The notes: generated from the sequence alone by a model not told the origin. 64,000 nt of DNA from a virus (IMGVR_UViG_3300021387_000109:12008-76007), one strand, 5' to 3'; shown: positions 4,386-63,927, numbered from the stretch's first letter. Numbers and translations are program-made.

Positions 4386-5307
4386 ACTTATTAAAGTATT
4401 TTTGAGTCAAGTGTCTCATTCCCAAGTACAACATGGTAACTGCTAGAAGTACTCTAACTACTCCAAAATTACTCCATAGATCTAAAATACCTACTTTAAT
4501 AAAGATACCCCATAGAATACAAATAGCAAAGCATATAAGAGTACCTAGATTAACTCCAAAGGATTTATGCATCGCTACTGCAATAGAGTCTATAGTGGAT
4601 GTAGTAACACCTAGAACAGCTATGAATAATAGCCATGAACCAGTAAGAGAAAGTTGATAATGAGCCAGAAGATAAACCAAGGATAAATAGAAAGCAAAGA
4701 ATCCTGTAGCCCATTCAAAGGCATATCCATTGCCATTTACCTTTGCTCTTTGCCAATGCTGTAAGTCAGAGATAATACCTGACATTAAGATGCAAGCACT
4801 CCAACCAGCCCATATTAAAGAACCAGAATCTGAAGAAGGGAGTACTGTAATTGTTTGACCTTCATAAAAGCACAATCCTAGAAGAGTCATTAGAGCTAGT
4901 AAGGTAATAGCTCCTTGAAAGTTATCTGTAAAGATAGAGGCTTCAAGACCTCTCCAATACATAATACCTACAAAGAGTAATCCAATAGCAGAAACAATGA
5001 AATATGAATATTCTGAACCAAAAGGAATAGAACAGATATCATTAAGAATCTTTAGTTGAATTATTAGACAGAATGCTTGAATAATGGTAAGCAACCATTT
5101 AACAATCTTGTACTCAAGAATTTTTTCTGTAAGTATTCCTGTTTTATAAAGAATACCAAAGAAAGTTAGAGTTAGACAGTTAGCAGTAGCCCATACTAAA
5201 AAGGCTTCAGTACCTTTAGTTTGAGCTATTTGCATACCCATAATAAGAGATGTACCCCATGCCCAAGAAATGGCAATAGAGGCACCTATATAAGCAGATT
5301 TAAGCAT
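4384..5307 (-). CDS. Polytopic membrane transporter, sodium:solute symporter-like (about 10 TM segments)
   Basis: Almost entirely hydrophobic helices; ISWAWGTSLIMG resembles SSF TM1; DLQHWQRA resembles SSF DQxxWQR motif; short (307 aa) for the family. Confidence 0.65.
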   Translation of the reverse strand: MLKSAYIGASIAISWAWGTSLIMGMQIAQTKGTEAFLVWATANCLTLTFFGILYKTGILTEKILEYKIVKWLLTIIQAFCLIIQLKILNDICSIPFGSEYSYFIVSAIGLLFVGIMYWRGLEASIFTDNFQGAITLLALMTLLGLCFYEGQTITVLPSSDSGSLIWAGWSACILMSGIISDLQHWQRAKVNGNGYAFEWATGFFAFYLSLVYLLAHYQLSLTGSWLLFIAVLGVTTSTIDSIAVAMHKSFGVNLGTLICFAICILWGIFIKVGILDLWSNFGVVRVLLAVTMLYLGMRHLTQKYFNK

Positions 5308-16058: not shown

Positions 16059-16428
16059 ATGAATCCTTTTAGATAAATATAGTAGATTATATGCATTTTT
16101 TATAAAAATTCATAAAAAGGGTTCCTGTAAATAATTTGAACCAGAAAAGAAAAGATTTTTAAAAATCTACTATATCCTCCTGAAAGCCTCTAGGAGCCTT
16201 TGAGTACCCTTTGCAATAGGGTTACTAGGGCTAACCTCATTTGGTTCAATGGGGACCCTTTTTAAGCGATTTTAGAGCATATATGAGAAAGGAATAAAGG
16301 AAGGATAGATACGAATTGTTTTTTACATAATGAGAGGGGTAGATACGAATTATTTTTGATGGTAGGAGAGAGGTGTAATACCAGGGGGGCTTGCCCCCCA
16401 ATAAATCAACTATCCCCCCCCCTCTTTT
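16059..16428. other. Non-coding interval between divergent late and early blocks; probable genome end / terminal repeat region
   Basis: No ORF; 12 bp direct repeat TAGATACGAATT (16306, 16340); G6-CTTG-C6 hairpin (16384-16399); C9 run; position matches N4 genome ends. Confidence 0.55.
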
Positions 16429-16447
16429 GGACTGTCGTCCTTAATTG
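16429..16447 (+). promoter_or_regulatory. vRNAP hairpin promoter P1 (predicted +1 G16447)
   Basis: GGAC-TGTC-GTCC-TTAATT-G; template-strand loop GACA closed by C-G. Confidence 0.7.
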
Positions 16448-16477
16448 ACTATTATCCTTTACTCATGGAGGTACATC

Positions 16478-16787: not shown

Positions 16788-16807
16788 AGTCCTGTCGGAC
16801 TTAATTG
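16788..16807 (+). promoter_or_regulatory. vRNAP hairpin promoter P2 (predicted +1 G16807)
   Basis: AGTCC-TGTC-GGACT-TAATT-G. Confidence 0.8.
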
Positions 16808-16833
16808 ACATTAACCTTTCTAAGGAGATTACT

Positions 16834-17293: not shown

Positions 17294-17315
17294 TAAGTTC
17301 TGACGAACTTAATTG
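17294..17315 (+). promoter_or_regulatory. vRNAP hairpin promoter P3 (predicted +1 G17315)
   Basis: TAAGTTC-TGAC-GAACTTA-ATT-G. Confidence 0.8.
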
Positions 17316-17357
17316 AAAGAGAGAATTCCTCTCTCTTAACAACTCTAGGAGGCTTCA

Positions 17358-17987: not shown

Positions 17988-18007
17988 AGCCCTGTCGGGC
18001 TTAATTG
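17988..18007 (+). promoter_or_regulatory. vRNAP hairpin promoter P5 (predicted +1 G18007)
   Basis: AGCCC-TGTC-GGGCT-TAATT-G. Confidence 0.8.
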
Positions 18008-18125
18008 AGCGCTTACTCCGATTAACCCTTAACCGACCAATGATTAACCCTCTTCGCCTGCTCGATTCTAGAAAGAGCAGAGACCCTCTACAGACAAGGC
18101 CAGTCTGTAGGGGGTTTTATTTTTT
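18007..18125 (+). ncRNA. Candidate pre-early small RNA (about 115 nt)
   Basis: Lies between promoter P5 and a strong terminator with no SD-led ORF; GATTAACCCT x2; CTGCTC/GAGCAG hairpin. Confidence 0.55.
18083..18125 (+). terminator. Rho-independent terminator
   Basis: ACCCTCTACAGAC/GTCTGTAGGGGGT stem plus T-rich tail. Confidence 0.85.
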
Positions 18126-21855: not shown

Positions 21856-21918
21856 CTTCCAGATTTCTAAAAGATTTCGCAGTCTTGGGTTGGAATCTAT
21901 TTTTCTTTCAGATTTCTT

Positions 21919-21938
21919 TGCCGCTTCGCGGCATTTTG
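21919..21938 (+). promoter_or_regulatory. vRNAP hairpin promoter P8, triloop type (predicted +1 G21938)
   Basis: TGCCGC-TTC-GCGGCA-TTTT-G; template loop C-GAA-G as in N4; same 10 nt loop-to-G spacing as P1-P7. Confidence 0.65.
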
Positions 21939-22018
21939 GCAATAGTCACTTTCAACCGATTTCGCAGCTTTGGAACGGGAAGTGATTTTGCTTCTCAAAC
22001 TTAAAGGAGATTTTTATA

Positions 22019-23215: not shown

Positions 23216-23242
23216 AATTAATAAAGCCCTCAATAGAGGGCT

Positions 23243-23305
23243 TATTTATTAGTGTTCGGTGGTAGAGTTTTGCTCCTATTGGCTACTGTCGAACACTAAT
23301 AAATA
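23243..23305 (+). ncRNA. 23 bp hairpin with 17 nt loop containing CTCCTA (sRNA or RNase III site)
   Basis: TATTTATTAGTGTTCGGTGGTAG pairs with CTACTGTCGAACACTAATAAATA; three G-U pairs favour a plus-strand RNA. Confidence 0.55.
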
Positions 23306-23323
23306 ACTATTTTGGAGATAGTC

Positions 23324-24406: not shown

Positions 24407-24717
24407 CAGAAAGAAAATTCTTTCAAGTTTCCTTTGGAAATAAGAAAATTATCATCTATTCCAAAGTGATCGGAGAAGGGTATGAAGCAATATTTGAGCA
24501 TGAAGGAATACTCTGTTTTGCTTCTGTTATTAATCTTTCAGATCATGTACTCTATAAGGAAGGAAATATAGAGTGTATGATCTTTCCAATTGATCCCAAC
24601 ACTCATGAAATAGATTTTGGAACTGAACTATACATTAATAGAACAGATTCCAAAGATATGCTTTGGTTTATTAAACAATGTATTGACGACTTTACGGAGG
24701 AATATCATGCGTCTTGA
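24403..24717 (+). CDS. Hypothetical protein (104 aa)
   Basis: ATGA overlap coupling. Confidence 0.7.
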   Translation: MTERKFFQVSFGNKKIIIYSKVIGEGYEAIFEHEGILCFASVINLSDHVLYKEGNIECMIFPIDPNTHEIDFGTELYINRTDSKDMLWFIKQCIDDFTEEYHAS

Positions 24718-24901: not shown

Positions 24902-24929
24902 GCATAAAACCCCTCATCATTAGAGGGGT

Positions 24930-25010
24930 TATTTATTAGCATCCAGATAGACTTTGCTTCGTTTGATGTTCCTTCTATCCTTGTTCGTTTTATCTGGGTG
25001 CTAATAAATA
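24930..25010 (+). ncRNA. 20 bp hairpin with 41 nt pyrimidine-rich loop (sRNA or RNase III site)
   Basis: TATTTATTAGCATCCAGATA pairs with TATCTGGGTGCTAATAAATA; same outer arms and context as 23243-23305. Confidence 0.55.
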
Positions 25011-25029
25011 ATCACAAAAGGAGATTGTT

Positions 25030-49079: not shown

Positions 49080-49092
49080 TGTACAATAGGAA

Positions 49093-49302
49093 TCGAAGCG
49101 AAGAGTGGTAATATTGTAGTCATACTGACATGACAATCCTAGAAAGTTAAATCGGACCCCATCCACCAACACCACCATCCGATTTAACTTTCAGATGAAT
49201 CCTTGGGGTTTAACTCCTTAAATTCGTTTCATGCATATCTCCTTTACCCGAGGGTTCATCTGAAAGTTTATTTTAGACCTGCTTTTAAGCAGGTCTTTTT
49301 TT
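49093..49302 (+). ncRNA. Candidate small RNA (about 210 nt) with two long overlapping hairpins and own terminator
   Basis: 15 bp stem 49142-49192 with C-rich loop; 22 bp stem 49186-49268 with loop antisense to AAAGGAG...ATG; TACAAT at 49082; terminator 49275-49302. Confidence 0.7.
49275..49302 (+). terminator. Rho-independent terminator
   Basis: AGACCTGC/GCAGGTCT stem plus T-run. Confidence 0.85.
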
Positions 49303-49316
49303 ATATAGGCACCAAC

Positions 49317-50055: not shown

Positions 50056-50533
50056 ATCTCTAAGCAAAGAAGAAATACAACAGTATAAAAAATTCGTTGA
50101 TGCATTAGAAACTGCTAGAAATGCTCAGATCTTAGCATATGGAGAGACTATAAGTTATAAGTGCAAATTCTTTAGAGACCTTGAACGAGTTTTAGATTGT
50201 TTAGAATATCCATATGGAACATACGTATCTAGGAATATAATAGAAGTACTTGAAGATATTCGTTTAACACTTGAAAGAAAATCAAGAAAAAGTTCTACAT
50301 ATAGAGCATATTCAGAGTGTTTTTTACCTGAAGAAGCTATATTAGATTTTATAGACTTTATTCTAACAATAATAGATAAAACCACTGGTTTTACTATGGA
50401 AGAATATTATAACTATAGTTCAGCAAATTATATGCTTAGTTGTTATATTCGAGCACAACTATCACATAGTTCTGATACCATAGAAAAATATATTGCAATA
50501 GGTAGCAAACATTATAAAAATTTGTTTGGATAA
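50048..50533 (+). CDS. Paralog array B, member 2
   Basis: YKKFVDALETARNAQILAYG...CKFF; GGAG SD. Confidence 0.78.
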   Translation: MIESLSKEEIQQYKKFVDALETARNAQILAYGETISYKCKFFRDLERVLDCLEYPYGTYVSRNIIEVLEDIRLTLERKSRKSSTYRAYSECFLPEEAILDFIDFILTIIDKTTGFTMEEYYNYSSANYMLSCYIRAQLSHSSDTIEKYIAIGSKHYKNLFG

Positions 50534-50536
50534 ATT

Positions 50537-51040
50537 ATGAGTAAATTTTTCCTTGAAAATCATGCTATGCAATATAAGAAGTTTGCTGATGCTCTAGAAA
50601 ATGCTAGGAATGCCCAGATATTGGTGTATGGAAAAACTAAAAGTTGGCACTGTAAACTTTTTGATGAACTTGAATGGGCTTTAGTATATTCTTGGAGACA
50701 TATGTCTGATGGAACAAAAGAAGCTTTTAATTATAAGATTAACCATATCCGTGAAGTATTAAAGAAAAAGTCAAAGAAAAGTTCCATCTATAGAGCATAT
50801 ACAATGTGCTTCTTACCTGAAGAAACTATGCTAGAGTTTATAGATTTTATTTCAATAGCAAGAGTTATGGCTGAAGTTTGTAATCTTGATGATTTTGAAG
50901 TAGAAACTTATGACAGAGCAAATGATATGATTAAAGCATATATTCAAGCACAATCTTTATTTGATTCTTCTATGTATGCAGAGGAAATGGCAAGTTATCT
51001 TAGAATGGCTAACTATGACTATAAGCTACTGTTTGGATAA
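50537..51040 (+). CDS. Paralog array B, member 3
   Basis: YKKFADALENARNAQILVYG...CKLF. Confidence 0.78.
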   Translation: MSKFFLENHAMQYKKFADALENARNAQILVYGKTKSWHCKLFDELEWALVYSWRHMSDGTKEAFNYKINHIREVLKKKSKKSSIYRAYTMCFLPEETMLEFIDFISIARVMAEVCNLDDFEVETYDRANDMIKAYIQAQSLFDSSMYAEEMASYLRMANYDYKLLFG

Positions 51041-51070
51041 AAGAAAAGCCCCTTTTCAGGGGCTTCTTTT
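51039..51070. terminator. Bidirectional terminator at the convergence of middle and late blocks
   Basis: AGCCCC-ttttca-GGGGCT with A-rich and T-rich flanks. Confidence 0.8.
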
Positions 51071-63891: not shown

Positions 63892-63927
63892 TAAAAAAAA
63901 AATACACCTTGTAATGAGGTGTATTTT
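63892..63927 (-). terminator. Rho-independent terminator just upstream of vRNAP
   Basis: AAAATACACC/GGTGTATTTT stem followed on minus strand by a T-run. Confidence 0.75.

Follow-up and report, generated by a model that had tools for sequence, protein, structure and literature searches.

In late infection by the Pseudomonas N4-like phage LUZ7, ONT-cappable-seq has revealed 'unusual intergenic transcription' in the orf69-orf70 gap, with three abundant species of < 250 nt (sRNA1-3), two of which share a start site and differ in their terminator (Putzeys et al., 2022; PMC9163698). Sequential terminators and read-through were described for the orf64-orf69 operon in the same study (PMC9163698). On the map of the LUZ7 record, the orf69-orf70 gap lies after SSB and gp66-69, and before gp70-72 and the convergent virion RNA polymerase (vRNAP) gene. 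The gap folds with z = -6.2 and, with the coordinates and strand of the sRNAs inferred from the sequence, reads in order as a sigma-70-like promoter, a C/A-rich leader with almost no G, a 13-bp hairpin with UCUCCU in its 30-nt loop, and a terminator. A homologous gap occurs in LIT1 (L222:9353-9758) and in loci L223-L226 as well as in LUZ7 (L082:9645-10042), and the GenBank record of PEV2 marks part of it, on the + strand, as 'very strongly transcriptionally expressed'. Conservation among five Litunavirus genomes and LUZ7 extends to the -35 box, to a distal long hairpin (at least 12 bp) and to the first of the terminators. One octamer, which lies in an unpaired linker and matches the 16S 3' tail core, is invariant throughout the Litunavirus set, with variation in its flanking bases and in the hairpin loop. 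The sequence of the LUZ7 gap was matched only in Luzseptimavirus, and that of the LIT1 gap only in Litunavirus and LUZ7. Several Pseudomonas N4-like records have spurious ORFs annotated in this sRNA gap.

The same slot in N4 (L163 4114-5632) is a 1.5-kb unannotated gap between gp47 and gp48, in which we found four tRNAs, two tRNA-like remnants, further stem-closed segments, a terminator, and a 19-bp hairpin whose 44-nt loop carries CCUCC twice. Two long-stem segments of the N4 gap, at 4869-4932 and 4942-5038, have T-arm-like sequence. In Fifi287 the slot holds eight tRNAs, with a 12-bp hairpin (34-nt loop) before them and a terminator at the end. More widely, tRNAs were located 0.8-2.7 kb 3' of SSB at 24 of the 91 unique N4-like loci with enough sequence, and at two loci (L087, L139) the tRNAs alternate with hairpins of 13-27 bp stems and 22-56 nt loops, several of them arranged as tandem pairs. 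The slot between SSB and vRNAP in Schitoviridae is an RNA island of tRNAs, stem-clamped spacers and sRNAs, a conclusion that is independent of the function of the element described below, and that should help in annotating a family whose gaps often stay blank or receive spurious ORFs. The island is optional, as Xanthomonas PB119 and Burkholderia HN05 have no such RNA features in the slot. A group I intron (Rfam RF00028, 63 bits) was observed downstream of the replication genes in a related phage (L006:7548-7797).

The element that we describe here occupies this slot in an uncultured phage. The window, which is the whole stretch of DNA analysed (64,000 nt), comprises bases 12008-76007 of a complete virus record of 76,007 bp that has direct terminal repeats and a GC content of 37%. 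By its gene content the phage is assigned to the N4-like podoviruses (Schitoviridae); its nearest cultured relatives are Erwinia phages of the Fifi and S6 type, with an SSB identity of only 52%. Genes for a primase, a Sak4-like protein, an N4-type SSB, a RusA-like resolvase, p89 and p77 follow one another on the + strand, and are succeeded by the element, four orphan genes and the convergent vRNAP gene (Table 1); the genes upstream of the element are syntenic with the orf64-orf69 operon of LUZ7. The element begins 0.9 kb 3' of SSB, lies within the 237-nt gap between p77 and p87, and is present as a single copy in the phage genome. Searches of Pfam, PHROGs and ESM Atlas gave nothing significant for the orphan genes (p87, p181, p161 and p167); a 13.6-bit match of p167 to an RNA-ligase C-terminal domain was below threshold and was dismissed. 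Six tRNAs were found in the window by ARAGORN and Rfam (five by Rfam alone), all at 29.5-32.5 kb.

Table 1. Location of the element's parts and of the genes and promoters considered with it; positions are counted from the first base of the window.
Feature	Position	Strand	Basis or remark
Candidate vRNAP early promoters (four)	16428-16448, 16788-16808, 17296-17316, 17988-18008	+	Ahead of first small genes
T4 Rnl2-type RNA ligase, 341 aa	29930-30955	+	PF09414 + PF18043
p77, HicB-like gene, 77 aa	48846-49079		Directly upstream of element
TACAAT, candidate -10 box (weak promoter at best)	49082-49087	+	Read directly
Small 5-bp hairpin in 5' leader	49119-49134	+	In MFE and centroid folds
Hairpin 1, 15-bp stem	49142-49156 with 49178-49192	+	Inverted repeat, 15/15 Watson-Crick
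7-nt direct repeat, 5' copy	49142-49148	+	Complementary to 49186-49192
Loop 1, 21 nt, C/A-rich	49157-49177	+	Zero G, CACC x3
Shared arm, 7 nt (3' arm of stem 1, 5' arm of stem 2)	49186-49192	+	
Hairpin 2, 22-bp stem with two G-U pairs	49186-49207 with 49247-49268	+	Inverted repeat, 91% DNA-level complementarity
Loop 2, 39 nt, G-poor	49208-49246	+	3 G
CUCCUU, two copies in loop 2	49214-49219, 49239-49244	+	
7-nt direct repeat, 3' copy	49262-49268	+	Identical to 5' copy, complementary to 49186-49192
Intrinsic terminator: 9-bp stem (5 G-C pairs), 4-nt loop, seven U	49275-49303 (stem-loop 49275-49296)	+	
p87, orphan gene, 87 aa	starts 49317		Directly downstream of element
Virion RNA polymerase (vRNAP), 4007 aa	51884-63907	-	

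A first-pass annotation of this DNA had drawn two long interlocking hairpins, one with a perfect stem and CACC three times in its loop, the other with CTCCTT twice in a larger loop, and a terminator behind them. A repeat finder and direct reading recovered the first hairpin where it had been placed; the second was likewise found in its place, and a + strand scan called the terminator, which also forms in the folds and is the sole small-loop hairpin in the unit. The overlap of the two helices was borne out too: since the identical heptamers that flank the pair compete for the shared arm, the junction between the helices can slide. On the + strand the minimum free energy is -65.0 kcal/mol (z = -5.7), and none of 200 shuffled sequences did as well. 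The G-U pairs of hairpin 2 form only in + strand RNA, and the - strand has no U-run after the terminator stem. Partition-function folding from three 5' ends gave the same two hairpins each time. The loops are predicted to be unpaired with p = 0.82-1.0 for every assumed 5' end (0.92-1.0 for loop 1; 0.82 and 0.99 for the CUCCUU motifs).

The composition of the element also departs from chance. There are only three G in the 60 nt of the loops (p ~9e-4), and two of the ten copies of CTCCTT in the 35-kb + strand block fall within loop 2, for which the probability in 39 nt is ~5e-5 at the block-wide rate and ~6e-4 given the loop composition. By our own estimate, an exact 7-nt overlap of the helices has a chance of ~6e-5. 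The CACC word, on the other hand, is too short to carry meaning alone, as a C/A-rich loop would give three copies of it. No ORF of at least 40 aa was found in the region of the element, and neither ARAGORN nor Rfam found a tRNA or tmRNA at 49.0-49.3 kb. Rfam 15 searched with the element (E up to 10) returned at best <= 26 bits against thresholds of 35-160, with E >= 0.025, and on the whole window yielded five tRNAs elsewhere and nothing further. A type III toxin-antitoxin RNA, a MITE and a REP-like repeat were considered and rejected, the element being single-copy and devoid of tandem repeats, and its ends inside the 7-nt direct repeats not being inverted repeats. These results support a non-coding, strongly structured + strand unit with a real terminator. 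We conclude that the unit is a real orphan element of structured RNA, not a product of chance, and that the slot it occupies is a conserved site of RNA genes in N4-like phages.

Its resemblance to the sRNA region of LUZ7, LIT1 and PEV2 is one of position and design only, and blastn and nhmmer found no sequence similarity between the element and the LUZ7 and LIT1 RNAs. All lie in the same slot, past SSB and the genes on the resolvase side and with a few small genes before the convergent vRNAP gene, and all are non-coding and strongly folded, with one or more intrinsic terminators, a C/A-rich unpaired stretch, and a long hairpin whose large, G-poor loop has a pyrimidine motif resembling an anti-Shine-Dalgarno (anti-SD) sequence. 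The Pseudomonas phage RNAs differ in having a good -35 box that is conserved between two genera, whereas the promoter of the element is weak. Furthermore, in the element the motifs sit in hairpin loops and the helices share an arm, and it is known from sequence alone. In design the element parallels small RNAs that experiments have revealed in cultured relatives; its function is putative.

We found no homologue of the element itself. Searches by blastn of 50,697 phage records gave no match, nor did blastn and nhmmer searches of 160 related loci (80 from IMG/VR and 80 from metagenomes) gathered via SSB, and a search for loci by way of the flanking p77 and p87 proteins was equally empty. No viral contig matched a pattern that fixed the stem and left the loop free, and pattern scans of virus and genome collections returned nothing specific. 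The best relative among the 160 loci has 68% SSB identity, while SSB relatives at 97% and 89% identity are present in the protein collection. Synteny with the relatives runs through the resolvase and p89 and then breaks: p77 and the four downstream genes have no counterpart in the relatives' loci or the collections searched, and the region therefore turns over fast. Class relatives L009, L091 and L092 carry too few substitutions for informative covariation.

Both loops had been likened in the first-pass annotation to the 3' tail of 16S rRNA. For loop 2 the likeness stands, in that its anti-SD hexamers are accessible, but the CACC of loop 1 has no complementarity to start regions: none of 94 phage start regions was matched by this loop. 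The ribosome-binding sites of the phage are of the SD type, with extended AAGGAG forms the commonest upstream words, and the CUCCUU copies of loop 2 are complementary to this consensus, with a match that extends past the core. Loop 2 has perfect complementarity of at least 8 nt to eight of the 94 start regions, as opposed to 2.6 +/- 1.9 for shuffled loops (6 of 500 reach eight), and of at least 9 nt to four. The pairing runs through the SD in six of the eight, and each of the eight belongs to an early or middle gene on the + strand. When duplex energies with the 94 start regions were computed, neither loop did better than shuffled loops. The search for host targets that had been proposed came back empty, as the 22-nt complement of loop 2 had zero matches in 185,579 species genomes. 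The 54 genome matches to a 19-nt piece of loop 1 were taxonomically scattered and of low complexity, and were read as chance.

To look beyond this phage, we assembled non-coding hairpins of N4-like loci (stem >= 12 bp, loop 8-60 nt), which formed 70 loop clusters. CTCC occurs 13 times in these clusters against 4.8 expected (0 of 500 shuffles), which ranks it second of the 256 tetramers, and leaving out the window of this phage it still occurs 11 times against 4.6 (1 of 1000 shuffles), although - strand ribosome-binding sites in some loci may slip through the ORF-based filter of the set. GGAG shows no enrichment. The class-wide effect is modest, with 12 of the 70 clusters carrying the motif, and long hairpins favour one strand only weakly across loci (15 vs 7 at >= 17 bp). 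The invariant linker octamer of the LIT1-type phages also favours the anti-SD reading, which is in part more than an anecdote.

Several bacterial sRNAs, among them RNAIII and RsaE of S. aureus, LhrC of Listeria and Cuckoo/alpha-r14, have C/U-rich anti-SD loops. Like the element, they combine several hairpins and a terminator with exposed pyrimidine motifs complementary to SD sequences, for which masking of ribosome-binding sites has been proposed. The hallmark of such RNAs, accessible SD-complementary motifs in loops or linkers, is seen here in the two CUCCUU copies. The element differs in that its loops are far larger (21 and 39 nt) and its stems far longer and perfect, and in being phage-encoded and matching no Rfam model.

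The element is probably a small regulatory RNA. Our leading interpretation, which we hold tentatively, is that it is a terminator-ended riboregulator that masks SD sites. We infer a + strand non-coding RNA module of ~170-220 nt that would end at the intrinsic terminator. Read-through from the replication operon could produce it as a 3'-UTR-derived RNA; alternatively, it would start at a weak promoter immediately past the HicB-like gene. The long stems might clamp the RNA against nucleases, keeping it compact, and may serve as entry points for RNase III, while the G-poor loops would remain single-stranded as its working parts. Loop 2 would pair with the SD regions of strongly SD-led messages and so lower translation initiation, the candidate targets being early and middle genes of the phage after use, or host messages. 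Such an action would be similar in effect to the RegB/RegA shut-off of T4, and similar in mechanism to that of the bacterial sRNAs with C-rich loops. One point against it is that 22-bp perfect stems exceed those of typical base-pairing sRNAs and would suit RNase III.

How the RNA would begin bears directly on another account. The first-pass annotation took the unit to be a stand-alone transcript headed by a TACAAT box. The box exists and matches a -10 hexamer at 5/6 positions, but the best -35 at 17-nt spacing matches only 3/6, a sigma-70 consensus scan called no promoter there, and the hexamer doubles as the 5' arm of a 7-bp helix with 49112-49118. Given so weak a promoter, and a start 3 nt past the stop codon of p77, the unit could equally be a 3' UTR. 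This start, together with the strong terminator at the other end, suits a cis-acting 3'-end module of the replication (middle) operon, whose long helices would be RNase III sites and/or exonuclease barriers and which would set the 3' end and half-life of the upstream mRNA, along with read-through into the four downstream genes, the content of the loops being incidental. We regard such a cis role as possible, nearly as likely as the riboregulator, and compatible with a 3'-UTR-derived sRNA. The 15- and 22-bp stems, if stacked on the shared strand, would form ~30 bp, and either the stack or the 22-bp stem alone would provide the double-stranded ~20 bp or more within an operon transcript that RNase III would recognize. 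The closest relatives with data have a comparable arrangement: a 14-bp hairpin and terminator come right after the p89 homologue in L004, L005 and L085. In L004 (3215-3631; also in L005, L085 and L086) they open a ~420-nt non-coding stretch (z = -8.9) that has a nested long-range helix and two terminators, is followed by a tRNA-Leu, and matches no Rfam family. The sequential terminators and read-through of the syntenic LUZ7 operon, and the position of other long hairpins of this phage, which abut gene starts, point the same way.

The RNase III sites of T7 and the sib region of lambda are long double-stranded segments between cistrons or in 3' UTRs, and the element resembles them in having a double-stranded length of the size cleaved by RNase III. 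The T7 sites, however, have an irregular structure that is interrupted by internal loops and capped by small apical ones; unlike the element, they have neither anti-SD motifs nor shared-arm pairing, and a 7-nt helix overlap is no feature of known RNase III sites. Open, G-poor loops with two exact anti-SD hexamers would likewise be needless in a stabilizer or a cleavage site. Moreover, the phage encodes no RNase III, so that such a role would depend on the host's enzyme.

The setting of the element in an RNA island raises a further explanation, namely that it is a relic of an ancestral island, whose two spacer-type hairpins and terminator were left behind, with little or no function beyond termination, in a phage that has its tRNA genes elsewhere (29.5-32.5 kb). 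Spacer RNAs of tRNA clusters include RNA C and RNA D of T4 and the 3'ETS-leuZ sponge of E. coli, and hairpins in the style of the element fill the inter-tRNA spacers of N4-like islands: they accompany the tRNA clusters in the slot of N4, Fifi287, L087, L139 and others, and they are found in the spacers of this phage's own tRNA cluster. The fast turnover of the region, in which p77 and p87-p167 lack homologues in relatives, would also fit a relic. As opposed to such spacers, however, the element is flanked by no tRNA, so that its ends, instead of being cut by RNase P and RNase Z, must be set by the terminator and by a promoter or processing. Stems in which 15/15 and 22/22 positions pair, departing from Watson-Crick only by G-U, together with the exact 7-nt overlap, point to purifying selection over decay, and the loops are of non-random composition and motifs. 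We therefore think a relic improbable.

That the inverted repeats act in DNA, as a cruciform, a hairpin promoter, an origin or a recombination site, seems to us very unlikely. They are near-perfect and adjoin SSB, Sak4 and RusA-like genes, and N4-like phages employ DNA hairpins for their early promoters, with LUZ7 using them for middle promoters as well. Cruciform extrusion is nonetheless disfavoured by loops as large as 21 and 39 nt, and the G-U positions become mismatches in the - strand hairpin of a cruciform. Hairpin promoters of the N4 type combine a 4-7-bp stem and a 3-4-nt loop with conserved bases at the flanks, and those of LUZ7 have stems of at least 6 bp and 3-4-nt loops, patterns absent from the element. 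The candidate early promoters of this phage (Table 1) have 4-bp stems that covary between copies, 4-nt loops (TGTC or TGAC) and an invariant 9-mer, CTTAATTGA, and the element contains no such motif. A different motif was noticed at 21870-21975 (+), between a strong terminator and the gene at 22018. It is 10 nt long, has a TTGG word behind it, and is present in two copies ~83 nt apart; it may be a middle-promoter motif, and it too is absent from the element.

Function on the - strand, with the complement of loop 2 as a mini-ORF or leader peptide, has the slightest likelihood of the readings that we considered. The complement does read, as had been pointed out, as an SD, a 6-nt spacer, ATG, three codons and a stop, and is thus a textbook start region, but any loop that is anti-SD and anti-AUG looks alike when read backwards. 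The neighbouring genes and the terminator are all + oriented, no gene lies downstream on the - strand, and late transcription of that strand should end at the bidirectional terminator that a scan placed at 51044-51067. The fold is also weaker on this strand (z = -3.4), with A-C mismatches.

The shared arm gives the unit an unusual geometry. With one uninterrupted central strand common to both helices, it is a dumbbell whose nick can move, and the segment 49142-49261 (120 nt = 2 x 30 paired + 21 + 39) would close into a 30-bp dumbbell. It is conceivable, though highly improbable, that the unit is pre-circular: in such a model the ends of a trimmed 120-nt RNA would abut as a nick in the 30-bp duplex and be sealed by a ligase, which would yield a circular RNA, covalently closed and proof against exonucleases, with the anti-SD loops on display. 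Rnl2 enzymes seal nicks in duplex RNA, such a nick being their preferred substrate. The phage encodes an RNA ligase of this type (Table 1) with both the nucleotidyltransferase and the Rnl2 C-terminal domains; it lies inside the tRNA cluster and adjoins an HNH endonuclease gene and a dCMP/cytidine deaminase-family gene. An Rnl2-type ligase is absent from N4, LUZ7 and Fifi287, and is present in the record behind L009, a relative with a large RNA island.

Small RNAs of this slot are so far known only as the unexplained transcripts of LUZ7 and the strong transcription in PEV2. Should the RNA be transcribed and work by way of its loops, an uncultured lineage would join this sparse set, and one conserved slot would emerge as the place at which strictly lytic N4-like phages encode small regulatory RNAs. 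The common logic that this would suggest is that an RNA copy of the ribosome's mRNA-docking sequence mutes SD-led messages at a switch between stages of infection.

Further repeats and hairpins were observed elsewhere in the window. A 123-nt direct repeat (50256-50378 and 50745-50867, 73% identity) indicates that the orphan genes p161 and p167 are paralogues. Within the terminal repeat, 63899-63927 (= genome 6-34) holds a hairpin with a 13-bp stem, a 3-nt loop and a T-run behind it, just upstream of the start of the vRNAP gene on the - strand. Two hairpins on the + strand, one of 24 bp with a 17-nt loop (23242-23306) and one of 25 bp with a 37-nt loop (24927-25013), have stems that open with a common 11-mer, and each ends ~17 nt before a start codon; their loops are pyrimidine-rich and contain anti-SD-like words. 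A 17-bp hairpin at 24540-24583 has a loop of the opposite kind, rich in GGA.
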